DNA of 64,000 nucleotides from positions 49,987 through 113,986 of the forward strand of contig NCBJ01000001.1 in assembly GCA_002255585.1 (NCBI GenBank), in the 5' to 3' direction. This document shows positions 7,966 to 60,846 of this stretch, piece by piece; the first letter of the stretch is position 1; each line of letters begins with the position of its first letter. The notes under the pieces are model-generated. The model did no database searches, had not been told where the DNA came from, and was given only the letters and a program-made list of their open reading frames with translations. This DNA comes from Parcubacteria group bacterium 21-54-25. GTDB taxonomy: Bacteria > Patescibacteriota > Minisyncoccia > Phycocordibacterales > Phycocordibacteraceae. The position numbers and the translations under genes are program-made.

Positions 7966-7986
7966 GAGTAAGGTTTAACCTTACTC
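7966..7986 (+). repeat. REP palindrome copy 1 (GAGTAAGGTTTAACCTTACTC, centre TTTAA)
   Basis: Perfect 21-nt inverted repeat. One of six near-identical copies in the window. Confidence 0.8.
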
Positions 7987-8020
7987 AAGGTGTCCAGCTA
8001 GGAAATTGGCCTAGCAAAAC

Positions 8021-8056
8021 AAAAAACCACCCTCTTTTGGGTGGTTTTTTGTTTTC
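8021..8056 (+). terminator. Rho-independent terminator downstream of the giant surface protein gene
   Basis: Stem AACCACCC / GGGTGGTT with loop TCTTTT, followed by a T-run and preceded by an A-tract. It is possibly bidirectional. Confidence 0.6.
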
Positions 8057-8063
8057 CAGCGTT

Positions 8064-8084
8064 GAGTAAGGTTAAACCTTACTC
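8064..8084 (-). repeat. REP palindrome copy 2 (centre TTAAA, inverse orientation)
   Basis: GAGTAAGGTTAAACCTTACTC. It is the reverse complement of copy 1 at the asymmetric centre. Confidence 0.8.
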
Positions 8085-8129
8085 AACGCTCAGTTTATGC
8101 ACCTCTTATCTTTGCCCTACGGACCAAGT

Positions 8130-8150
8130 GAGTAAGGTTTAACCTTACTC
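8130..8150 (+). repeat. REP palindrome copy 3 (centre TTTAA)
   Basis: GAGTAAGGTTTAACCTTACTC, 14 nt upstream of the RAYT start codon. Confidence 0.8.
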
Positions 8151-8163
8151 ACGGCATGCTAGA

Positions 8164-8883
8164 ATGTACGCAATGCGAGTAGAACCATACGGTGTTGGAT
8201 CCATTGTGCACATAACAAACAGGGGTGTGCGGGGGACAGATATCGTGCGCGATACGGCGGACAAAAGAAATTTTATGCGGTCACTTTTTTATTTGAATGA
8301 TACGTACACAAGCCGTAACTGGCGGCGTGAGATTGCTGATATCGGCATGTTTGAACGCCCGTCAGTATGGCCAGAGCGCGATCCTCTCGCCCGGATACTT
8401 GCCTGGACGCTTTTGGACAACCATTTCCATTTGCTCGCTCAAGAGATTCGAGAAGGGGGCGTAGCGAAGTTCATGCAACGTCTTTGCGGGAGCCTCGCGA
8501 TGAGTTTCAATCTGAAATATAGGGAAAAGGGGAGCATCTTCCAAAGTTCGTATCATGCGCGATCGGTTACCGAGGATAAACACCACCAGTATCTTGTGTT
8601 TTATGTTCTCGTTAAGAATGTTCTTGACCTGTACCCAGGCGGACTTACTGCAGCTGCGCTGAATTTTGATGACGCATGGGAATGGGCAAAACAGTACCCG
8701 TATTCAAGTTTTCGTGACAGTATCGCAGGCAAGGAATCGCCGGTTCTTGCCGACCCAGACATGCTTATTGCGAGTATTCTCGGTACCGGGGATGTTTACA
8801 AACAAGAAGCAAAGGATATGCTCGATTTCCACCTTGCCTCAAGAGGGGAAGCGTTCAAAGACATAATGCTTGAACCGTGGTGA
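8164..8883 (+). CDS. REP-associated tyrosine transposase (RAYT; IS200/IS605-family Y1 HUH transposase-like)
   Basis: HuH motif LLDNHFHLLAQ. The C-terminal block FQSSYHARSVTEDKHHQYLVFYVLVKNVL aligns to the RAYT/TnpA block [29 protein letters not shown] and carries a candidate catalytic Tyr. The N-terminus GSIVHITNRGVRGTDIVRDTADKRNFMRSLF matches the Y1 transposase N-terminal pattern. The ORF is flanked on both sides by the REP palindromes. Confidence 0.7.
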   Translation: MYAMRVEPYGVGSIVHITNRGVRGTDIVRDTADKRNFMRSLFYLNDTYTSRNWRREIADIGMFERPSVWPERDPLARILAWTLLDNHFHLLAQEIREGGVAKFMQRLCGSLAMSFNLKYREKGSIFQSSYHARSVTEDKHHQYLVFYVLVKNVLDLYPGGLTAAALNFDDAWEWAKQYPYSSFRDSIAGKESPVLADPDMLIASILGTGDVYKQEAKDMLDFHLASRGEAFKDIMLEPW

Positions 8884-8891
8884 TAAGCCGT

Positions 8892-8912
8892 GAGTAAGGT
8901 TAAACCTTACTC
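8892..8912 (-). repeat. REP palindrome copy 4 (centre TTAAA)
   Basis: GAGTAAGGTTAAACCTTACTC, 9 nt after the RAYT stop codon. Confidence 0.8.
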
Positions 8913-8955
8913 ACCGTCTTCATGGCTTCGCTCAGCACTTGGTCTGGAGTTTGTT

Positions 8956-8976
8956 GAGTGAGGTTTAACCTTACTC
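8956..8976 (+). repeat. REP palindrome copy 5 (one mismatch: GAGTGAGGTTTAACCTTACTC)
   Basis: Near-perfect copy with centre TTTAA. Confidence 0.7.
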
Positions 8977-13383: not shown

Positions 13384-13404
13384 GAGTAAGGTTAAACCTT
13401 ACTC
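13384..13404 (-). repeat. REP palindrome copy 6 (centre TTAAA), downstream of the rplL terminator
   Basis: GAGTAAGGTTAAACCTTACTC. It sits within a 27-nt extended palindrome GATGAGTAAGGTTAAACCTTACTCATC. Confidence 0.8.
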
Positions 13405-21772: not shown

Positions 21773-21899
21773 ATCATGCTACCGACAGGTACATACCGCG
21801 CTCTGCGCGCGGGAACTGCAAAAAGTTCGCGCTCCTGGCCGCCCGGCAAAAACATATTTATTTTTTCCCGACGCTTGCGTCGGCCGCTTGCACGATGCT

Positions 21900-23612
21900 A
21901 TGACCCAACAAAATGCTCTCGACATTTTGAAGACGGGCGCGAATGTGTTTCTCACCGGCGAGCCGGGGAGTGGGAAGACGCACACCGTCAACTTGTTCGT
22001 GGCGTGGCTCAGAGAGCACGGCGTGGAGCCAGCAATCACCGCATCAACCGGCATCGCCGCCACACACATACACGGCCTAACCGTCCATTCTTGGAGCGGT
22101 ATTGGCGTACAGCGTGATCTTTCCGCAGAAGATCTTGACCGCATCGCACAAAAAGAGCACGTAGTGCGTCGTGTGCGAAAGACGCACGTGCTCATCATCG
22201 ACGAAATTTCTATGCTCTCAGCCGATACTCTCGCGATGGTCGATGCGGTGTGTCGGGAAGTACGCCGCGACAGCCGATCGTTTGGCGGCATGCAGGTCGT
22301 GCTGGTGGGCGACTTCTTTCAGCTGCCACCAATTACACGGTCCGCTAGCAGCAATACGCGTGTACAGGGCGATTTGCTCATGCGCGGTGACCCTGAGAGC
22401 GTATTCGCGTTTTCCGGTGAGGTCTGGCATCGATTAAACCCGCTCGTGTGTTATCTCACCGAGCAGTACCGTCAGGAAGACGCCGCGTTTCTTGACGTGC
22501 TGTCGGCAATACGGAGCGGTACCGTGACGGCCGAGCACGAAGCGCTGCTTACCGATCGTCGTGTCGAACCCGCAGACGAGGTGCCGGCACTCTTCCCGCA
22601 CAATGCGAACGTCGATCGCGTGAACGACGCCGCACTCGCAAAACTGCCCGGCACTGCACGACACTTTGCTATGGAGCGTTCTGGACCTGACGTACTTACC
22701 GATGCACTCGTACGCGGATGTCTTTCGCCCGAGACGCTTGCGCTCAAGGAACGCGCACGCGTCATGTTTACGAAAAATAATCCAGCCGAAGGGTTTGCCA
22801 ACGGCACGCTCGGTATGGTAGTTGGGTTCGACCACGGTCAGCCAGCGGTTGAAATGCGTAACGGCCGCACGATTACCGTAGCGCCGATGGAATGGGTCGT
22901 CGAAGAGGGCGGTAAAATACGCGCCAAAATTACCCAAGTGCCGCTACGGCTTGCGTGGGCTATTACGGTCCATAAGAGTCAGGGCATGTCGCTTGACGCG
23001 GCACACGTCGACCTTGCGCATGCATTTGAATATGGTCAGGGTTACGTAGCACTATCGCGCGTGCGATCGCTTGCAGGCCTCACCTTAGCCGGGCTTAATC
23101 GCCGCGCGCTTGAGGTGCACCCCGGTATCCTTGAAAAGGATTCGGTATTTCGCGAGCAGTCTGCGGCTGCCCAAGCGACATTTATCGACCTTTCAGAAAA
23201 AGAACTCGCGACAATGCATGCGCGCTTTCTGAAGGCGATGGGTGGCAGCATCGAGGTGCTGAGCAAGGAAGAACAACACGCGGCCACCGGTCCGCGCGAA
23301 GACCCAATTCAAGCCACCCTCGCGCTTTTACGCACAGGCCACAGCATCGAAGAAATTGCCGCGCTGCGCGCACGAAAACAAAGCACCATTATTACGCACA
23401 TCGAGCACCTTCATGACGCAGGCGCACTCTCGTATGCCGATGTCGCACACTTGCTGCGTGGACGCGAGGAAGACATTGAGACGGCACACACTGCGTTTAC
23501 GCTCTTAGGAACGGAACGGCTCGCGCCCGTTTTCTCAAAATTACACAAGAGTATCTCGTACGACACGCTACATCTTGCGCGCGTACTGTTTCTGTTGAAG
23601 GACAAACCATAG
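21900..23612 (+). CDS. Pif1/RecD-family ATP-dependent DNA helicase with C-terminal HTH domain
   Basis: Walker A GEPGSGKTH, Walker B LIIDEISM, and VLVGDFFQLPP, the Pif1 signature region. C-terminal HTH-like ATLALLRTGHSIEEIAALRARKQSTIITHIEHL. Confidence 0.75.
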   Translation: MTQQNALDILKTGANVFLTGEPGSGKTHTVNLFVAWLREHGVEPAITASTGIAATHIHGLTVHSWSGIGVQRDLSAEDLDRIAQKEHVVRRVRKTHVLIIDEISMLSADTLAMVDAVCREVRRDSRSFGGMQVVLVGDFFQLPPITRSASSNTRVQGDLLMRGDPESVFAFSGEVWHRLNPLVCYLTEQYRQEDAAFLDVLSAIRSGTVTAEHEALLTDRRVEPADEVPALFPHNANVDRVNDAALAKLPGTARHFAMERSGPDVLTDALVRGCLSPETLALKERARVMFTKNNPAEGFANGTLGMVVGFDHGQPAVEMRNGRTITVAPMEWVVEEGGKIRAKITQVPLRLAWAITVHKSQGMSLDAAHVDLAHAFEYGQGYVALSRVRSLAGLTLAGLNRRALEVHPGILEKDSVFREQSAAAQATFIDLSEKELATMHARFLKAMGGSIEVLSKEEQHAATGPREDPIQATLALLRTGHSIEEIAALRARKQSTIITHIEHLHDAGALSYADVAHLLRGREEDIETAHTAFTLLGTERLAPVFSKLHKSISYDTLHLARVLFLLKDKP

Positions 23613-23710
23613 CGGGCCACTCTCGACCCCACTCATTGAGCGAGACGGTGTATATCGTGCTGCCGCAGAAAATTAGACCGCGCACTGGCCGTGTGTACGT
23701 GTCGCGCGTG

Positions 23711-23739
23711 TTGACAGAGCGCGGCGGTGCGCGTATCCT
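23711..23739 (+). promoter_or_regulatory. Candidate sigma70-type promoter upstream of 23S rRNA (TTGACA-17 nt-TATCCT)
   Basis: Sequence match only. Confidence 0.3.
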
Positions 23740-24517
23740 GTGGGGACGTGTTTACGGCAATAGAAAGACCCACATAAAGAGAGCGGATAGGCCGCAGGCC
23801 TCAGCATGCAAATGCAACCGCTCCTTGGCGGTTTTTTCTTTTTTGCACGGGGAACACGAGACCTTTGACAACTGAATACGTATAGGTAATCAAAGTGCAA
23901 ACTGCCAAGCAGTATGCAAATAATGCTTGGCATTCAACGAGAAAATCGTTTTGTGGTGTATAGGTCTCCACGCAGGAGACAGTAAGGGTGCACGGTGGAT
24001 GCCTTGGCTTGCGTAGGCGATGAAGGACGTGATTAGCCGGCGATACGCTTCGGGGAGGTGGCTTTTAACCTTCGATCCGGAGATGTCCGAATGGGGAAAC
24101 CCTCCCGCCATGCGCGGGAACCATACGAGTAACGTCGTATGGAGCGCACCTGGGGAAGTGAAACATCTCAGTACCCAGAGGAAAAGAAAGCAATAGTGAA
24201 CCGTTTTTTATCGGCCCGACTAGTCTGGCTGATAAAAAACGGTTCCCGCGATTCCCTAAGTAGCGGCGAGCGAAACGGGATAAGCCCAAACCCACATGTT
24301 CGCATGTGGGGGTTGTAAGGCAGGAACGCAGTACTTGTACTGGAAGAGTTATCAATCATACTTATAGAAGAAACTGCTGGAAAGCAGTGCCCAAGACGGT
24401 AATAGCCCCGTATTTGAAATGGGTATGACTCTTTCGTTCCTGTTCTTGAGTAGTTCGAGACACGAATAGCTCGAATGAATCTACCAGAACTAACTGGTAA
24501 GGCTACATACTACGCAA

Positions 24518-24563
<46 letters not shown>

Positions 24564-25260
24564 GATGAGGGGAGTGAAATAGAACTGAAACCGTGTACCT
24601 ACAAAGGGTCGGAGCCCATGATTCTTTTGAGTCAGGGTGACGGCGTGCCTATTGAAGAATGAGCCTGCGAGTGTGTGTCTGTTGCATAGCTAAGCCCGTA
24701 ATGGGGTGGAGCTTCAGGGAAACCGAGTGTGAATAGCGCGTCGGTAGCAGACATACGACCCGAAGCCAGATGAGCTTGCCATGAGCAGGGTGAAGTGTGT
24801 CGAAAGACACATGGAGGCCCGAACCCGTTGGTCGTACAACGCCTTGGGATGACTTGTGGTAAGGAGTGAAAAGCTAATCGAATCTGGTAATAGCTGGTTC
24901 TCTCCGAAACAGCTTTTGGGTTGGCGTCGCGTGATCCTTCTGGGGGTAGAGCACTGGAAGGGATGAACAGGGAGAAATCTCGTCATTCCTATCAACCTCC
25001 GAATACCAGAAGTTACAGCGCGGCAGTTAGAAGGCGGGGGCGAAGCTCCGTCGTTCGAAAGGGGAAGAGCCCAGATCGCCAGTTAAGGCCCCAAAATCGA
25101 CGCTCAGTACAAGGTGAGGAAGTAAGAATCCTGAGACAATGAGGATGTTGGCTTAGAAGCAGCCACCATTTAAAGAAAGCGTAACAGCTCACTCATCGAG
25201 GGTTCTTGCGCCGTAAATAATCGGGGTTAAGCGTCGTGCCGAAACTGCGGGTTTGCACAC

Positions 25261-25437
25261 TTCACAGGGGAGGAAACTTCCTAAATGTTCTTCGGGGTGG
25301 CGTTCTTCTACGCGCGGACAAAATCCGCTGCGAGGAGGCCAGAGGTATAGCCCTCACCACCCCGACCACTTTCTTTACGAAAGTGGTCAAGAATTATTGA
25401 GACGAATCTAATCATAATGATTCGCCTCTCCTGTGAA
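25261..25437 (+). other. Intervening-sequence-like expansion in 23S helix 45
   Basis: A 177-nt insertion closed by the long-range stem TTCACAGGGGAGG...CCTCTCCTGTGAA. E. coli has a short helix at this point (around position 1170, a classic IVS site). Confidence 0.5.
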
Positions 25438-26178
25438 GTGTGCAAGCGGTAGGAGAGCGTTCTGTTCCGCTATGAAGGGAAAGGGGTGACCCGTCCTGGA
25501 GCGTACAGAAGTGAGAATGCAGGCACAAGTAACCACAATGCAGGTGAGAACCCTGCACATCGAAAGACTAAGGTTTCCCGGGCCATGACAATCATCCCGG
25601 GGTTAGTCGGACCTAAGGGGATGGCGAAAGCCGCACCCGATGGACACACGGTCAATATTCCGTGACCGCCGCACATGCGAGTGGGGTGACGGACTGCAGT
25701 ACTGACGGCCAGTTATTGGATTCTGGTTGGTTTCGTAAGGGGGCGCTCTAGGTAAATCCGGAGCGCGCATACCCCAAGCGATGCCGCGACTTTCTTCTTC
25801 GGAGGGAGGAAGCGTCAGGAGCGCGGTTCCAAGAAAAACCTCTAAGCTTCAGTGTGCGTGCGACCGTACCGAAAACCGACACAGGTGGTCTGGTCGAGAA
25901 GACTAAGATGAACGAGTGAGAGGTCCTCAAGGAACTCGGCAAACAAGCGGCCGTAACTTCGGGATAAGGCCTGCCCATCGCAAGATGGGCCGCAGCGAAA
26001 GATTTCCTAGCGACTGTTTACCAAAAACACAGCTCCCTGCGAACTCGTAAGAGGAAGTATAGGGGGTGACGCCTGACCAATGCCGGAAGGTCAAGTACGG
26101 GTGGTTACATACTTCGGTGTGTAGCTGGACTGTATAAGCCCCGGTGAATGTCGGCGATAACTATAATCGTCCTAAGGT

Positions 26179-26547
26179 CAGACACACTTTTCAGAAATGA
26201 TAAGCGTGTCTGAGGATTGGGACGATTGTAGGGTAGACAGTAACGTCAGCTGCCTTACTGCACAGCAATGTGCAGATTAATCCACCCATGGCCATATGCT
26301 GGGAAGGGAGTGTCTAGGGCATAATTATTCCTTAGACATGAACGATCAGCAGGAAAGATCGAGAATTGAAGGATAGATTGTGGAATTTACGGATAGAGAA
26401 GGGCTTCAGAAGGAAGATTGCGTACATTAATAGAGCGCATGAATCGCAAGAACCCATCACAATTCTTGAAATCCTCAGAGACTACACGCCATGCCCCCGT
26501 ACACGATGCGGGGTGAAGATATAGTCCAAAGGTTTAAAGGAACCTAG
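26179..26547 (+). mobile_element. Group I intron 1 in 23S rRNA (about 369 nt, no ORF), inserted at CCUAAGGU|AGCGAAAUUCC (around E. coli position 1917)
   Basis: The exon junction restores the universally conserved sequence. The P7 core is CAGAGACTACACG ... AAGATATAGTCC (compare Tetrahymena CAGACUAAAUG ... AAGAUAUAGUC). The 5' exon ends in U and the intron ends in G. Confidence 0.7.
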
Positions 26548-26998
26548 AGCGAAATTCCTTGTCGGGTAAATTCCGACGTGCACGAATGGCGTAACGACTG
26601 GGAAACTGTCTCGAGGACTCGCTCGGTGAAAATGCAATACCGGTGAAGATGCCGGTTACCTGTAGTTAGACGAAAAGACCCCAGGAGCTTTACTGCAGCT
26701 TCGTATTGGGGCTACGTGATACGTGCGTAGCATAGGTGGGAGACTTTGAAGCGTGCCTTTTGGGGTACGTGGAGTCGCCAGTGAAATACCACTCTCGTAT
26801 TGTGTAGTTCCTAACCGTCGGGTGGAACCCCGTCGGGACCGTGCGTGGCAGGCAGTTTTAGTGGGGCGCTATCCTCGAAAGCAGCGCCCATCCGACTAAA
26901 TCCAAAAACAGGAAAATATAAAAAAGGGGGACTATGTGAAGTAATTCACATAAGCAATCTGGCTAAATGCTGGAACATCCGAGAATCTTCAAGTACTC

Positions 26999-27023
26999 AT
27001 TTAGGACACGCCGTGTCCTAAAT
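26999..27023. repeat. Palindrome family 2, copy A (ATTTAGGACACGCCGTGTCCTAAAT), inside intron 2
   Basis: 25-nt perfect inverted repeat. The centre CGCCG is inverted relative to copies B and C. Confidence 0.8.
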
Positions 27024-27178
27024 AGTGAAAATCTTTGAAGTGCGGACAATCAGCAGGGAAGACTCGCAAGAGAACCCTCAGAGACTACACGCCAGACTCC
27101 GCGCATAGCGGATGAAGATATAGTCCGATCTGCATGGCGACATGCAGGCGCAATTTCCTCCCGTGATTGCGCACGCCC

Positions 27179-27203
27179 ATTTAGGACACGGCGTGTCCTA
27201 AAT
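27179..27203. repeat. Palindrome family 2, copy B (ATTTAGGACACGGCGTGTCCTAAAT), inside intron 2
   Basis: Part of the 31-nt hairpin CCCATTTAGGACACGGCGTGTCCTAAATGGG. Confidence 0.8.
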
Positions 27204-27549
27204 GGGGAACACAAGCCTAAAAAGTAACGGAGGAGCCTATTAAGGTCGGCTAGGCGCGAATGGAAACCGTGCCGATAGTGTAATGGCACAAGCCGGCTTA
27301 ACTGCGAGGGGTACATCCCAAGCAGATGCGAAAGCAGAGCATAGTGAACCGATGGTTCGCCTTAGAAGCGGCCAGAGATTAACGGATAAAAGTTACCCTG
27401 GGGATAACAGGCTAGTACCGCCCAAGCGTCCATAGCGACGGCGGTGTTCGGCACCTCGATGTCGGCTCACCTTAGCGCGGGGCTGAAGCAGGTCCCAAGC
27501 GTTTGGCTGTTCGCCAATTAAAAAGGTACGCGAGCTGGGTTCAAACCGT

Positions 27550-27926
27550 CGAGCACCTGAATCACGCGATTCGGTTGTTCGACCCGTTTGAACCCCGAGG
27601 AAACTGTTATATAGAATCTGCACAAGATCTCATTGCGTATGCGATGAGTAACTTGAGCAGGTTTGCATGTGTGTGGAGACGCACAAAAAAAGACATACTC
27701 ACGGCGGCGCATTGCAGGAATGCAGTGCGAGCAAATCGACTGATATCGGTGAAATCCTGAACGTTGTGTACGTGAAGGACAATACCGAGGGAAGTGCGGT
27801 AACGCATGCCCCTAGAGACTGAATGTCGATCACCCTACCCATCGAAAGATGCCGGGTGGTGTTACAGTCCGATCCCTTCAGTAATGGAGGTAACGTTCTG
27901 CGCGAAAGCGAAGGACAAACTAGATG
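27550..27926 (+). mobile_element. Group I intron 3 in 23S rRNA (about 377 nt), inserted in AACCGU|CGUGAGACAGG (around E. coli 2593-2596)
   Basis: The exon junction restores the conserved GAACGUCGUGAGACAGUU. Divergent P7 pairing is AGAGACTGAATG ... GTTACAGTCC. Only an 85-aa ORF without homing-endonuclease motifs lies inside. Confidence 0.55.
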
Positions 27927-28069
27927 CGTGAGACAGGTTGGTCTCCTATCTACTACAGGCGTTGATTCTTGAGGGGGCTCGTCCCTAGTACGAGAGGACC
28001 GGGATGAACTGACCTCTGGTCTACCTGCTGTCGCGCCAGCGGCATCGCAGGGTAGCTATGTCGGGTTTT

Positions 28070-28100
<31 letters not shown>

Positions 28101-28328
28101 TTGCCCCAAGATAAGGAATCGTTATGAGACTCCTGGAAGATGACCAGGTTGATAGGCTTTAGGTGTACGCACAGCAATGTGTTCAGCCGAGAAGTACTAA
28201 TACGTCCAGTCTCTTGCGTGGAAATCTGTATGACACAATACGATTTCTCGTTGTGTGCTTTTAGTACCTATACGTATACAGTGGGTGGTCAGAAACCGCC
28301 GCGCGCTTGTGCGCGCTGACGGAGAAAT

Positions 28329-28457
28329 GCGCCCACAGTGTTGGTGATTAATCGGAGGGGATATACCCGTTCCCATTCCGAATACGGCAGTCAAGCCCTC
28401 TTGAACCGATGGTACTCCGCAAGGGGGAGAGTAGGTAGTCGCCAACACTGTGGGCGC
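28329..28457 (+). rRNA. rrf: 5S rRNA
   Basis: CCCGTTCCCATTCCGAATACGGCAGTCAAGCCCTCTTGAACCGATGGTACTC...GGGAGAGTAGGTAGTCGCCAACAC matches the 5S consensus. Helix I pairs GCCCACAGTGTTGGTG with CGCCAACACTGTGGGC. Confidence 0.8.
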
Positions 28458-28650
28458 ATTTCTGTTTACGCTCACGCCCCAGCATTGCGCAAGGGGGAGA
28501 GTAGGTAAGAAAAACACGCCCAAACCATGGGCGCGTTTTTCTTTCTCCCATCGCTCGCTTCACACACGCAAACTTCACCCAGTTTGCGTGTTCTCGCTCG
28601 CTCGGTAGTAGTCGCCAACACTGTGGGCGCATTTCTTATCTACTCCTACC

Positions 28651-28682
28651 AAAACACCGCTCAAAATGAGCGGTGTTTTGGT
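28651..28682 (+). terminator. Rho-independent terminator at the end of the 23S-5S unit
   Basis: AACACCGCTCAAAATGAGCGGTGTTTTGG. Confidence 0.6.
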
Positions 28683-28693
28683 ATACTAGGCGC

Positions 28694-29485
28694 ATGGCAA
28701 TGAGGGGATTATCGTGGGCAGACCGCCGCCGCGCAATAGTGTTGCTCATACTCGCAGCTATTGGTCTTTCGCTGTTATTTTTCACGTACCATACCGCTTT
28801 CTATCGTGCGCCATCGTGCACCGATGGCATTCAGAATCAAGGGGAGGCGGGTATTGACTGCGGCGGGCCGTGCCAGTATTTATGCAGCACGCACGTGCAA
28901 CCGCCAACCGCGCAATTTGTACGACCGCTGGCAAACGGAGGGAACCGTACTGATATCATCGCGTATATTGATAATCCAAATCCCGCCGCTGCGGCAGCGG
29001 GTGCGACATACTCCGTACAACTGTATGGCACCGACGGGGCGTTGCTTGCACAGAAAAGTGGCACGGTTGATTTGCCGCCCCACAGCACGGTGCCGGTGTT
29101 CATGCCTAATTTCTACAATGGCGCAGGGCAGGCCGCAAACGCTTTCATCACGTTCGATCAGGCGTCACTCAAATGGTTTTTAAGTACGACGTCTCCTCAA
29201 ACGCTTCCCGTGTCAAACATTCAAGTGGCGGCGAGTACGAGTACGCCAAATGTGACGGCTACGATTACGAACCCTACTGCACTGCCGTTCTATAACGTGC
29301 GCGTGGTGGTAGTGGTGCTTGGTGCGTCCAGCTCATCAAACAACGTTATCGCGGCATCACAGACCGTGGTGCCGAGCATTCCTGCGCAGGGGACCGCCCC
29401 GCTCACGTTCACCTGGAGTGTACCGTTTGCAGGTACGCCTGTACGCGAGGAAATATTTCCGATTGTGCCGCTCGCGCATCCGTAA
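28694..29485 (+). CDS. Membrane-anchored hypothetical protein (N-terminal TM, extracytoplasmic beta-rich domain)
   Basis: TM helix AIVLLILAAIGLSLLFF. Cys cluster CTDGIQNQGEAGIDCGGPCQYLC. The stop is 1 nt before the SEDS gene start. Confidence 0.5.
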   Translation: MAMRGLSWADRRRAIVLLILAAIGLSLLFFTYHTAFYRAPSCTDGIQNQGEAGIDCGGPCQYLCSTHVQPPTAQFVRPLANGGNRTDIIAYIDNPNPAAAAAGATYSVQLYGTDGALLAQKSGTVDLPPHSTVPVFMPNFYNGAGQAANAFITFDQASLKWFLSTTSPQTLPVSNIQVAASTSTPNVTATITNPTALPFYNVRVVVVVLGASSSSNNVIAASQTVVPSIPAQGTAPLTFTWSVPFAGTPVREEIFPIVPLAHP

Positions 29486-41253: not shown

Positions 41254-41399
41254 AGCGGAACCGCTCTTGGGGCGGTTTTAGTTTCTTTGAAAGACTGGGT
41301 TTCGATAAAAAAGATGCACTCGAGTCGCATCTCGGAACCCTCCATAGCAGTAGATAGAACGTAAAAGTTCTAATGTGTTCTATTGCGTTCCGCCTATTC

Positions 41400-42857
<1,458 letters not shown>

Positions 42858-58678: not shown

Positions 58679-59710
58679 ATGAGGCTCGTCATAGCGACAC
58701 CACTGTATCCGCCCGAGCCGGGCGGACCGGCTACCTATGCAAAAGTTTTGGCGGAGGGGTTACCGGAGCGGGGCATCGAGGCGGCACTTGTGAAGTTTAG
58801 CGACGTGCGGCACCTGCCAAAGCTTGTGCGCCACGTTGCGTACTTCGGGCGAGTACGCCGCGCGCTCAGGGGTGCTGACGCCGTGCTTGTGCTTGATCCT
58901 GTCTCTACAGGGCTTCCCGCGTGTCTTGCCGCGTGGTCGCTCAAAAAGCCGCTTGTGGTGAAGGTGGTAGGTGACTACGCGTGGGAGCAGGGGCGGCAGC
59001 GTTTCGGGGTCACTGCGGGTTTAGATACGTTCGTGAAGACAAAAAAAGTACCGATAGCAGTGCGTTTTTTACGCAAGGTGCAGACTGGCGTCGCACACCG
59101 CGCGCGCGCGGTCATTGTGCCGAGTGCATACCTTAAAGGCATTGTGAAGAATTGGGGAATTCCAGAAGAGAAGATTCACGTTGTGTACAACGGCGTCGAG
59201 TTGACGGAATCACTGCCTACCCCCAAGCGCCCGAAGGGGCTTCTTGTTGTTTCAAGCGGACGCCGGGTGCCCTGGAAAGGGTTTGAGGCGCTTGGGCGTG
59301 TGGTGGCTCGTGAGCCGTCATGGCACCTACACATTGCCTCGGACGTTTCTCCTGGAGAAGCACGTGGGTGGGTGCGCGCGGCGGATGTTTTTGTTCTGAA
59401 CTCCACGTATGAGGGCCTTTCGCACGCACTCATTGAGGCCATGATGTTGGGCACGCCGATTATTGCCACTGCGGTTGGGGGTAATCCGGAACTTATTAAA
59501 GACGGTGTCACAGGGCTTCTTGTCCCACCCGGAGACGACGACGCGCTCCACGCCGCTCTGCAACAGGTCGACCACGACCCAGCCGCCGCGCGCACCCGCG
59601 CGGCGGCTGCCCAGAAAGCCGCCGCGCGCCTTACGCCAGCTGCTATGATTGAAAATACGGCAGCGCTCATACGATCCAATTTACCCAATTTAGGACACGG
59701 CGTGTCCTAA
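58679..59710 (+). CDS. Glycosyltransferase family 1 (GT4)
   Basis: The N-terminal domain as above. C-terminal LNSTYEGLSHALIEAMMLGTPIIATAVGGNPELIKDGVTGLLV. Confidence 0.75.
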   Translation: MRLVIATPLYPPEPGGPATYAKVLAEGLPERGIEAALVKFSDVRHLPKLVRHVAYFGRVRRALRGADAVLVLDPVSTGLPACLAAWSLKKPLVVKVVGDYAWEQGRQRFGVTAGLDTFVKTKKVPIAVRFLRKVQTGVAHRARAVIVPSAYLKGIVKNWGIPEEKIHVVYNGVELTESLPTPKRPKGLLVVSSGRRVPWKGFEALGRVVAREPSWHLHIASDVSPGEARGWVRAADVFVLNSTYEGLSHALIEAMMLGTPIIATAVGGNPELIKDGVTGLLVPPGDDDALHAALQQVDHDPAAARTRAAAAQKAAARLTPAAMIENTAALIRSNLPNLGHGVS

Positions 59711-59711
59711 A
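59687..59711. repeat. Palindrome family 2, copy C (ATTTAGGACACGGCGTGTCCTAAAT), at the 3' end of a glycosyltransferase gene
   Basis: Identical to copy B over 25 nt. It encodes the last residues LGHGVS plus the stop codon of CDS 58679-59710. Confidence 0.8.
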
Positions 59712-59721
59712 TATCTAAAAT

Positions 59722-60846
59722 ATGAAAGTCCTCTTTATTTCAAACGACCCGACGATTTTTGATCCGGAAAGTCCGCTGCGTACTCGTGAGCGCATGCGTG
59801 CGTACGCGGACGCTATCGGCGAACTACATATTATTTCGCGCGGTAGCGAAACTAAAGACGAGACGGACGGGCCACTTTTTCTCCACAGCATCAAACCACT
59901 ACCAACAGTCCTTGGACGAACGCTCTTCTTGTACACGTTTGGAAAGCGCGCGCGCAAACTTGTGAAGGAACTAGGTATCGAGGTTGTCTCGGCACAAGAC
60001 CCGTTTGAGCACGGTGCGGCTGCTCGCCGTGCGGTTTCTGGCACGAATGCAAAGTTGCACATACAGGTGCATACTGATTTCCTCTCGCCCTACTTCGCAA
60101 AGGAGTCGCGCAAAAACAAGGCGCGTGTGCGTATCGCTGATTCAGTACTGCCACAGGCCACTGGCGTTCGCGTTGTTTCTGAACGTATCAAAAAGTCACT
60201 GGTAGAGAGATACGGGGACCGTATACCGGAACCCGTCGTGATACCGATAGCCGCAGCGGTGCCAGCGCCCGAAAACGCGCCGCCGCCAAAATTTTCATTC
60301 AAGTTTTCGCTCCTGGCGGTGAGTCGGCTTGAGAAGGAAAAGTGTATCGGGGACCTCATTCGCGCCGTTGCCACCCTGGCAAAAACGCACTATCCAGTCG
60401 GGCTGTATGTCGTTGGTGCGGGGCGTGATCGTGCAGCCCTCTCGACGCTCGCGAGCACACTCGGTATCAGCGAACGTGTCATATTTCTGGGCGAGCAGCC
60501 AAACGTTGCGGCTTTATTTGCCCGCGCACAGGTGTTTGTGCAAGCAAGTTCGTATGAAGGATATGGCCGTACGTACATTGAAGCAGCACTTGTCGGCGTG
60601 CCGATGGTGGTCACGGATACCGGCATCATTGGCGAAGTCTTTAAGAATGGCGAGTCTGCACTCGTGTGCCCTGTGGGCGACGTAGCATGCCTCACCCACG
60701 CCATCGCAACCTTGATAGAAGAAAATGCCGAGCGCGTGCGTATTGGAGGAAACGCCAGGCGCGCGGCCGAGATGCACTTGTCGACCATGGGTAACGTCCC
60801 AGAGCGTATCGCCGCCGACCTTGCACAGCTTATCGCACGCGTATGA
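59722..60846 (+). CDS. Glycosyltransferase family 1 (GT4)
   Basis: VQASSYEGYGRTYIEAALVGVPMVVTDTGIIGEVF EX7E region. Confidence 0.7.
   Translation: MKVLFISNDPTIFDPESPLRTRERMRAYADAIGELHIISRGSETKDETDGPLFLHSIKPLPTVLGRTLFLYTFGKRARKLVKELGIEVVSAQDPFEHGAAARRAVSGTNAKLHIQVHTDFLSPYFAKESRKNKARVRIADSVLPQATGVRVVSERIKKSLVERYGDRIPEPVVIPIAAAVPAPENAPPPKFSFKFSLLAVSRLEKEKCIGDLIRAVATLAKTHYPVGLYVVGAGRDRAALSTLASTLGISERVIFLGEQPNVAALFARAQVFVQASSYEGYGRTYIEAALVGVPMVVTDTGIIGEVFKNGESALVCPVGDVACLTHAIATLIEENAERVRIGGNARRAAEMHLSTMGNVPERIAADLAQLIARV

Follow-up and report, generated by a model that had tools for sequence, protein, structure and literature searches.

A probable REP-type palindrome of Patescibacteria in the loops of a 23S rRNA group I intron and at a glycosyltransferase gene end

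The window analysed here, a 64-kb stretch of the genome of Parcubacteria group bacterium 21-54-25 (contig NCBJ01000001.1), contains three copies of a short palindrome, ATTTAGGACACG[C/G]CGTGTCCTAAAT. Two of them lie within a group I intron of the 23S ribosomal RNA (rRNA) gene and the third at the junction of two glycosyltransferase genes, hereafter GT1 and GT2 (Table 1). We propose that the three palindromes are, in all likelihood, copies of a repetitive extragenic palindromic (REP) type element that is widespread in the Patescibacteria, or candidate phyla radiation (CPR), and linked to a Y1/HUH gene of the type encoding REP-associated tyrosine transposases (RAYTs). Loci outside the window are designated by L numbers and individual proteins by P numbers.

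Results

Three copies of one palindrome

Exact matching places the two intronic copies, which read ATTTAGGACACGCCGTGTCCTAAAT (26999-27023) and ATTTAGGACACGGCGTGTCCTAAAT (27179-27203), where a preliminary description of this DNA had located them, and shifts the third by one base, from 59687-59711 to 59688-59712. The palindrome is still counted exactly three times in the window when up to three mismatches are allowed, and dinucleotide-preserving shuffles gave 0 matches in 100 of 100 trials. The unit has the form 12+1+12, with C as the central base in the first copy and G in the other two; as this base is unpaired, the copy with the "inverted centre" is a plain reverse complement of the others. 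A perfect palindrome of 25 nt had been reported, and the 25-nt core is indeed real, although copy 2 extends beyond it to a perfect palindrome of 31 nt (CCCATTTAGG...CCTAAATGGG, 27176-27206) with perfect arms of 15 nt. As RNA, copy 1 is predicted to form an 11-bp stem with a 3-nt loop (-12.6 kcal/mol) and copy 2 a hairpin of -21.8 kcal/mol.

Table 1. Positions, in the 64-kb window, of the palindrome copies and of the features that contain or adjoin them
Feature	Position	Strand	Remarks
Group I intron hosting copies 1 and 2	26876..27215	+	340 nt; E. coli 23S position 2262/2263
P5a extension (CUUCAAG...CUUUGAAG)	26982..27046	+	Predicted from constrained and deletion folds and from reading of the sequence; copy 1 at tip
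REP copy 1	26999..27023	.	25-nt core, centre C, exact match; tip of extended intron P5 hairpin
REP copy 2	27176..27206	.	Full 31-nt consensus CCCATTTAGGACACGGCGTGTCCTAAATGGG; core 27179-27203, centre G
GT1, family-4 glycosyltransferase	58679..59710	+	Pfam Glycos_transf_1 and Glyco_transf_4; 3' end apparently remodelled by the REP
GT1 C-terminal extension PNLGHGVS and stop	59684..59710	+	LGHGVS and stop encoded by the palindrome
REP copy 3	59688..59712	.	25-nt core, centre G, exact match; GT1/GT2 junction
GT2, downstream glycosyltransferase	59722..60846	+	Pfam; identical product on record

The intron that hosts two of the copies

Rfam places the bacterial 23S gene at 23972-28219 and the 5S gene at 28340-28447, with the 16S gene unlinked at 41399-42857. 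The blastn alignment of the 23S gene with E. coli rrlH is interrupted by three insertions of intron size, at E. coli positions 1931/1932, 2262/2263 and ~2593-2595, for which Rfam gives group I signals of 20, 77 and 32 bits, respectively. The three group I introns lie at 26179-26547, 26876-27215 and 27552-27926 and are devoid of open reading frames (ORFs). The middle intron alone passes the Rfam gathering score (Intron_gpI, 77.4 bits over 26910-27147, gathering score 50) and it alone carries the palindromes. It is preceded by U and its last base is G; the blastn match to rrlH restarts at 27216, which is E. coli 2263, and the exons joined without it read GGGGCGCUAUCCU followed by CCUAAAAAGUAACGGAGG, in agreement with both the Rfam large-subunit consensus and E. 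coli.

The intronic copies had been thought to bracket the P3-P9 catalytic core, which is not what the Rfam alignment indicates. Both fall outside the Rfam core. Copy 1 is aligned as extra sequence in the P5 terminal loop, at a distance of 123 nt from the 5' splice site and downstream of the 5' strands of P3, P4 and P5. Copy 2 forms a P9.2-like hairpin beyond P9 and past the end of the Rfam intron model, the order 3' of the core being P9 (27130-27147), the P9.1 hairpin (27148-27174), copy 2, 9 nt and the 3' splice site. An insertion of the whole 26999-27203 block as a REPIN or a miniature inverted-repeat transposable element (MITE) was considered and rejected, as the intervening core strands pair upstream of copy 1.

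A comparison of the intron fold with and without the palindromes, suggested in the preliminary description, yields the group I core helices both when the copies are folded as local hairpins and when they are deleted. The unconstrained prediction (-119.5 kcal/mol) joins the two copies by a long-range helix of 28 bp; forcing the local hairpins costs 1.5 kcal/mol (-118.0 kcal/mol) and restores P3, P4, P5, P5a, P6, P8, P9 and P9.1. The long-range helix was rejected as the biological fold because it crosses P4/P5 for a gain of 1.5 kcal/mol only. The local hairpins should form first, given that copy 1 is transcribed ~155 nt before copy 2, and the long-range pairing could possibly represent a misfolding liability. 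When both palindromes are deleted, leaving 284 nt, the predicted fold keeps P3, P4, P5, P5a, P6 and P8, and the P5a extension becomes a hairpin with a loop of ~14 nt. Since the core helices are predicted without them, the palindromes would be dispensable for the predicted core, and the intronic copies may best be seen as passengers in tolerant loops and not as parts of the ribozyme core.

It could be argued instead that this intron subfamily natively has the palindromes as peripheral hairpins, at the P5a tip and P9.2, or that they are a recognition module for an intron-associated endonuclease, the glycosyltransferase copy being a secondary or chance derivative. Indeed, both intronic copies occupy positions that are usual for peripheral helices of group I introns, and their 3-nt loops, GCC and GGC, are complementary, as expected of copies that are reverse complements. 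However, the core is predicted to fold without the palindromes, as just described, and the palindromes are absent from the two further introns of this 23S gene. There is no sense ORF of >=80 amino acids in the intron and no endonuclease ORF in or near it; the intron- or endonuclease-associated recognition module put forward earlier finds no support here. The distribution of the palindrome in other genomes, described below, bears on the same proposal.

A remodelled glycosyltransferase junction

The end of GT1 reads CCC AAT TTA GGA CAC GGC GTG TCC TAA, or PNLGHGVS*, which bears out the earlier reading that LGHGVS and the stop come from the palindrome; the TAA stop (59708-59710) lies inside copy 3, and GT2 begins at 59722, 11 nt after the stop. 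Most of the 119 GT1 orthologues listed have 333-336 amino acids and end in ...LLKSL, compared with 343 amino acids and the ending ...IRSNLPNLGHGVS in the window. In the REP-free loci L098 and L099, the GT1 stop overlaps the GT2 start as ATGA (gtATGAcc), whereas L097, whose protein is 71% identical, has a full 31-nt REP at the GT1/GT2 junction, giving ...SHLGHGVS*. This comparison with orthologues, which had been recommended as a check, indicates that the C-terminus was remodelled: judging from the aligned junctions, the REP appears to have split two formerly overlapping genes and to have given GT1 its last residues and its stop. At the same junction in L100 (3977-4023) there is a doublet of a sister palindrome, GGACATCcGATGTCC and TTAGGACATCgGATGTCCTAA, which reads RTSDVL...LGHRMS*, and LGHPMS or LGHRMS is the C-terminus of many other GT1 orthologues. 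Directly 5' of copy 3, the segment 59677-59694 reads CCAATTTAcCCAATTTAGG, a near-tandem duplication of the left flank of the REP that could have been left behind by an older copy or by the process of insertion.

The junction also bears on whether repeat misassembly in a metagenome-assembled genome (MAG) might have put the palindromes into the rRNA region. The Logan contig of the same sample, L109, does break at the start of the 23S gene. Nevertheless, the NCBI and Logan assemblies agree base for base on the GT-junction copy, the intron with its copies gives a coherent Rfam alignment with exact exon junctions, and the unique flanks around both intronic copies extend the local helices. We consider the chance of such an artefact to be minimal.

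The palindrome family in other genomes

The preliminary description had proposed a genome-wide search for the palindrome. In public genomes and metagenomes, its core recurs in dozens of Patescibacteria assemblies in unrelated contexts. Outside the window, the 19-nt core was found at 117 sites in 94 public loci, and nearly all labelled loci belong to Patescibacteria MAGs. These comprise 36 sites in 30 loci from a scan of species-representative genomes for the 19-nt core TAGGACACGSCGTGTCCTA and 64 further loci from a scan of metagenomes for the exact 25-mer; with the three sites of the window the total is 120, or 105 after removal of duplicates. Nearly all loci of the genome set belong to Patescibacteria MAGs, with the labels Kaiserbacteria, Parcubacteria, Paceibacterota, Saccharibacteria, Berkelbacteria or Minisyncoccia, and some assemblies contribute several loci (six in the Kaiserbacteria MAG CAWEXP01, 4 in JANLHF01). 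The viral contigs scanned for the core gave 0 matches, hence no sign of carriage by phages. The only match labelled as Gammaproteobacteria (L001, 3174-3192) lies inside a long ORF in another reading frame (...GPITVGHAVSYKS...); the contig may have been misbinned, or the core may have arisen there independently or by chance.

Taken over 103 distinct copies, from the other loci and the window, the consensus is the 31-mer CCCATTTAGGACACG[C/G]CGTGTCCTAAATGGG, identical to copy 2. In the genome set, where the flanks were not set by the search pattern, position 1 of the outer stem is Watson-Crick paired at 31 of 35 sites, against 17.6 expected, by TA, CG and GC pairs; the conservation of pairing by way of different base pairs indicates that a hairpin is under selection. 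A consistent target-site duplication was not found in the flanks of the copies. Among the sequences next to them are tRNA genes 5-20 nt downstream (L020, 4793-4817; L058, 138-162; L070, 1119-1143) and promoter-like TGGTATAAT sequences directly downstream (L012, L022, L026 and L028).

None of the 94 fetched loci contains rRNA, and none of the 20 scanned with Rfam has a group I intron, the RNAs found being tRNAs and one RNase P RNA. The hairpin is thus not a feature of an intron subfamily. The case that had been envisaged against a mobile element, a conserved hairpin of this intron subfamily together with a unique copy at 59.7 kb, does not apply, as there is no rRNA at the other loci and no group I intron in the 20 that were scanned, and the 59.7-kb copy is not unique. 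Taken with the tight association of the family with a transposase gene, described next, the 117 sites make a native intron hairpin extremely improbable.

The associated RAYT-type gene

At many loci two copies of the palindrome lie 685-700 nt apart, with an ORF of ~215 amino acids between them. Homologues of this ORF adjoin 45 of the 120 sites (36 of the 105 non-redundant ones), all but one at a distance of <=40 nt. Usually there are 18-24 nt between one copy and the start codon and 7-19 nt between the stop and another copy, and the gene, of the Y1/HUH type, is flanked by the palindrome on both sides at no fewer than 25 loci outside the window. One of them, L105, has a REP upstream of the RAYT, within a 53-nt perfect palindrome, and two downstream, and shares a single 72-kb contig with L097 and its REP at the GT junction. 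The combination of a single-copy Y1 transposase gene with flanking copies of a repeat that is otherwise dispersed corresponds to the REPtron arrangement of REP/RAYT systems (PMC6006769). The central base, C or G, has no consistent orientation relative to the transposase gene; both centre orientations exist, as had been observed and likened to the REP family, and they seem to carry little meaning.

The ~215-residue protein matches Pfam Y1_Tnp with 37 bits (gathering score 23), and its best NCBIfam model is REP_Tyr_transpos, at 39.8 bits, short of the cutoff of 80. Residues H68-Y-H70, Q108 and Y128, the latter within YIHLNP, are invariant in 47 sequences. In an AlphaFold2 model (pLDDT 88.5) the predicted fold is RAYT-like: the best Foldseek match in the PDB is 4er8_A, a RAYT on a REP hairpin (probability 1.00, target-normalised TM 0.63), followed by ISDra2 and IS608 TnpA. 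E. coli TnpA-REP (4er8) is likewise the top match, at a marginal E of 0.025, when PDB sequences are searched with a profile, and the alignment sets H-Y-H against H-M-H and YIHLNP against YIYINP; a single-sequence search of the same PDB sequences returned a chance match only. The homologues form 2,568 clusters at E <= 1e-20. Among the best 120 of these, PF01797 is recorded for all but one, which has no Pfam domain on record, and the named ones are called transposase of Kaiserbacteria, Paceibacterota or Patescibacteria. The protein also has a conserved C-terminal extension.

The window contains a RAYT-like gene of its own (8164-8883, + strand; Y1_Tnp, 26 bits), which is 29% identical to the RAYT of the family studied here (family 2). 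It is flanked, within 7966-8976, by another palindrome, GAGTAAGGTTnAACCTTACTC, with three copies upstream and two downstream, and a sixth, solo copy of that palindrome lies at 13384-13404. This genome would thus probably have two RAYT types for its two palindrome families; two REP families with two RAYT types also occur in other REP-bearing bacteria (PMC6006769).

A sister REP, GGACATC[C/G]GATGTCC, adjoins other RAYTs of the same protein family and encodes the peptides RTSDVL and LGH[P/R]MS. These peptides form the C-termini of proteins at the GT1 junction (P0007, P0008, P0044, P0065, P0106, P0114 and others) and the tails of RAYTs (P0301, P0315, P0322, P0332, P0336 and P0359). Since LGHPMS or LGHRMS ends several RAYTs, the sister REP has its own RAYT subclade, and the comparison of these sequences suggests that REP and RAYT have diversified together and that changes at the apex of the stem have been compensatory.

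Copies inside genes, and filled and empty sites

The element reads C CCA TTT AGG ACA CGS CGT GTC CTA AAT GGG, of which a single frame, encoding PFRTRRVLNG with Arg from either central base, is open, the other two having TAG and TAA; by its palindromic symmetry, the opposite strand likewise has one open and two stopped frames. The 105 non-redundant sites divide into 36 adjacent to a RAYT gene, 23 in frame in long ORFs, 14 that supply the stop of a long ORF, as in GT1 of the window, and 32 that are intergenic or other, including the two intronic copies. Among the in-frame hosts are UvrB (five loci at one position: L014, L085, L052, L054 and L038), GuaA (four loci: L008, L017, L075 and L032), a MutY-like glycosylase (L041, L060, L067 and L094), an alpha/beta hydrolase (L046, L074, L084 and L059), a reverse transcriptase (L042, L088 and L040), PheT (L044), TsaD (L009), Dus (L045) and a PIF1 helicase (L021). 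The in-frame copies, (G)PFRTRRVLNG, often occupy one position in orthologues that are only 73-80% identical, which suggests that the insertions are old and their DNA sequence has been frozen, or else that one site has been targeted repeatedly.

Orthologous sites that are filled in one locus and empty in another were found for GT1/GT2 (the window and L097, versus L098 and L099) and for Dus, in which the REP-filled L045 is 18 residues longer around the REP than the empty L030. In the PIF1 helicase (L021) and TsaD (L009), the segment with the REP exceeds that of orthologues lacking it by 1-5 residues only.

These observations also bear on the proposal that the palindrome is a regulatory hairpin or protein-binding site maintained by the host, such as a terminator, an mRNA stabiliser or an operator, that was spread by selection and that the Y1 neighbour uses as its own regulatory site. 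Consistent with this, the core is invariant while the associated transposases diverge to 57% identity, A-runs and T-runs flank the copies in L018 and L019 as in bidirectional terminators, and some copies are directly 5' of TGGTATAAT or tRNA genes, at the loci named above. Secondary regulatory roles of this kind have been reported for known REPs (PMC6006769). On the other hand, a terminator or an operator would make no sense in frame in conserved genes, where 23 of 105 copies lie, or in a ribozyme, where there are two; the copies in the window have no T-run, and the filled and empty orthologous sites argue for insertion. We regard regulation as an unlikely origin of the family, while noting that it is compatible with a REP and that single copies may possibly have been exapted.

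Discussion

The assignment of the three palindromes to a REP-type family draws on their dispersal, on the REPtron arrangement, on the catalytic motifs and RAYT-like fold of the associated protein, on the covariation of the outer stem and on the filled and empty orthologous sites. The small, dispersed REP-like element suspected in the preliminary description is thereby corroborated, by 117 outside sites in 94 loci and by RAYT-flanked copies in >=25 of them. Since the palindrome belongs to a REP-like family that flanks its own Y1/HUH transposase gene elsewhere, it can be viewed as selfish DNA lodged where it does little harm, and no functional link between the intron and the glycosyltransferases needs to be invoked. 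That an intron and a gene end share one palindrome is ordinary for a REP; the wider behaviour of the family is the interesting part.

By analogy with characterised systems, it can be hypothesised that the RAYT recognises the element when it is folded as a hairpin in single-stranded DNA, cleaves it close to the hairpin foot through the catalytic Y128 of YIHLNP with the assistance of the H-Y-H metal site, and rejoins the strand to new single-stranded targets, by which copies would spread in trans. Selection would then keep harmless insertions only, that is, those in intergenic sites, at gene ends, in tolerant protein loops and in loops of spliced-out introns; in the window, the tolerated places would be two peripheral spots of a group I intron that is spliced out and a gene junction. 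More speculatively, a heavily transcribed rRNA gene may expose single-stranded DNA, and its intron would be the sole neutral landing zone there.

Several points weigh against this interpretation. That the palindrome transposes at all is deduced from E. coli TnpA-REP and IS200/IS605 TnpA. No cognate, family-2 RAYT is present in the window, none could be assigned to the source genome among the best 120 of 2,568 homologues, and the sole RAYT-like gene in the window goes with a different palindrome family. Copy numbers are low, with 3-7 exact copies per MAG and 3 in the 64 kb of the window. The unpaired 5' guide GT[AG]G is absent from most copies, which have a stem-paired TTAG instead, GTAG being seen in some lineages only (L007 and L009). 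The differences of 1-5 residues in the PIF1 helicase and TsaD imply that not every intragenic copy is a clean insertion of fixed length. Finally, we infer the insertion of the copies into the intron, as an orthologous intron free of palindromes was not retrieved by helicase synteny, and the intron is without a second assembly. The searched loci that share the upstream PIF1-type helicase gave no orthologous intron, L102 and L103 being without rRNA and L101 stopping at the helicase.

The closest parallel is provided by the REP elements and BIMEs (bacterial interspersed mosaic elements) with the RAYT or TnpA-REP proteins of Enterobacteria and Pseudomonas, known also as REPtrons and REPINs, which likewise consist of short, dispersed hairpin palindromes and, as at the >=25 loci outside the window, a cognate, single-copy, REP-flanked Y1/HUH gene. 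In both, two families are found side by side in a genome, and each apparently goes with a RAYT type of its own. The 25-nt core and 31-nt consensus fall within the ~20-65 nt of REP stem-loops, there is dispersal within genomes, in numbers that are low compared with classical REPs, and HUH and a single catalytic Tyr are set on a TnpA-REP fold in the predicted structure, the NCBIfam cutoff not being reached. However, the palindrome described here is nearly perfectly symmetric and mostly lacks the unpaired GT[AG]G guide, which is also missing from some TnpA-REP subclasses (PMC6006769), and it occurs in single-digit numbers of exact copies per ~1-Mb MAG. It is also not strictly extragenic, around one fifth of the copies being intragenic and in frame and two of those in the window residing in an rRNA intron, and the ~215-residue protein has a conserved C-terminal extension, scores below the REP_Tyr_transpos cutoff and belongs to Patescibacteria, which are not mentioned as hosts in the REP/RAYT literature searched. 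The departures from a textbook REP/RAYT system are therefore the mostly guide-less palindrome, the low copy number, the frequent in-frame intragenic copies and the host. Our literature search, the coverage of which is incomplete, so that a prior description is possible, found no account of REP/RAYT in CPR bacteria, of group I introns that contain REPs, of a RAYT in connection with Rickettsia palindromic elements, or of the present motif or peptide.

The MITE option raised earlier fits less well. Bacterial MITEs, Correia, ERIC/IRU and Nezha among them, are likewise small, non-autonomous, dispersed repeats that give stops, hairpins and remodelled gene ends, but they have terminal inverted repeats around an internal segment, target-site duplications and DDE transposases, in contrast to the single hairpin and HUH/Y1 enzyme found here. 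MITEs were rejected on the grounds that the units are single hairpins without terminal inverted repeats and that the 155 nt between the intronic copies contain intron core strands which pair outside; no convincing target-site duplication was seen for the palindrome family. Mobile GC clusters and hairpin repeats of fungal mitochondria are short palindromes found in intergenic DNA, intron loops and variable rRNA regions. They resemble the present family in accumulating where they are tolerated, and differ in being organellar, of another sequence and without an associated Y1 transposase.

The placement of two hairpins in one intron suggests a further possibility, namely that they let the transposase act on the intron itself, in the manner of an IStron: the REP hairpins would be handles by which a Y1 transposase moves the group I intron in trans, and splicing would neutralise the insertion. 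Copy 2 lies only 9 nt before the 3' splice site, a placement that resembles the subterminal right-end hairpin of IS200/IS605 elements. There is a precedent for such a symbiosis of a group I intron with a Y1-transposase element (reference 4 of PMC6006769). In the IStron CdISt1 of Clostridioides difficile, as here, a group I intron is joined to sequences recognised by a Y1 (IS200/IS605-type) enzyme and splicing hides the insertion. Yet IStrons carry transposase ORFs and enter protein-coding genes, whereas the present case concerns ORF-less hairpin repeats in loops of an rRNA intron, which are not at both intron termini, and the element ends are not the splice sites. Copy 1 is deep in the intron at the P5 tip, 123 nt from its 5' end, the window holds no second copy of the intron, no rRNA lies at the other REP loci and no intron in the 20 of them that were scanned, and 2262/2263 is a position in conserved rRNA, where ordinary homing introns typically lie. 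It is accordingly very unlikely that the hairpins serve to mobilise the intron, and a REP family whose copies settle where they are tolerated remains our preferred reading.

With regard to the protein-coding copies, the closest resemblance is to the Rickettsia palindromic elements (RPEs), which are inserted in frame in conserved genes of small, reduced genomes, where they add a peptide, and which also occur in non-coding DNA. The RPEs, as Ogata et al. are said to have described them in 2000, reportedly measure ~100-150 bp and have no identified transposase. They are also mentioned in PMC1779305. The unit described here differs in being 25-35 bp, in adding ~10 residues (PFRTRRVLNG) and in being linked to a RAYT, and sequence and host are not the same, so that the resemblance is functional only. 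Stops in two frames and an open third would allow copies to settle in frame in genes such as UvrB, GuaA, PheT, TsaD and Dus. On this basis we tentatively suggest, at somewhat less than even confidence, a coding-compatible REP family driven by an identifiable RAYT, with copies in frame in essential genes, as stops at gene ends and in ribozyme loops. If so, this would be an RPE-like case of proteins that contain selfish DNA, one for which a candidate enzyme is available, in tiny CPR genomes that have little intergenic space.

REP/RAYT systems have been studied almost exclusively in Proteobacteria and defined as extragenic, whereas the RAYT-linked hairpins reported here are found in ultra-small Patescibacteria genomes, between genes, in frame in essential genes, at gene ends to which they donate stops, and in loops of a self-splicing rRNA intron. 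Should the link to the transposase be true, it would offer a tractable enzyme-substrate pair for the question of how palindromic DNA enters coding sequence, which is open for the Rickettsia RPEs, and a marker of REP turnover at orthologous sites across CPR lineages. In that case, insertions and tails of 8-18 residues in CPR proteins (LGHGVS, LGHPMS, RTSDVL and PFRTRRVLNG) would be repeat-derived, which would serve as a warning for annotation.

Further features of the rRNA locus

The region 21888-29485 comprises a PIF1-type helicase gene, the intron-rich 23S and 5S genes and an uncharacterised ORF of 270 amino acids, the 16S gene (41399-42857) being elsewhere in the window. In L102 and L103, a sortase gene directly follows the PIF1-type helicase; compared with this gene order, the rRNA genes of the window appear to have moved. 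The ORF downstream of the 5S gene (28673-29485) has no identical product on record. At the 5' splice site of the REP-bearing intron, only ~4 bp of a canonical P1 can be drawn, and across the same site (26863-26889) the exon sequence GGGCGCU, in the P-loop region of 23S rRNA, can pair perfectly with intron AGCGCCC 13 nt downstream. The 23S gene has two extra insertions besides its introns, an added segment of ~175 nt near E. coli 1164-1185 (25251-25447) and a 52-nt near-perfect palindromic hairpin at E. coli 227/228 (24194-24245).

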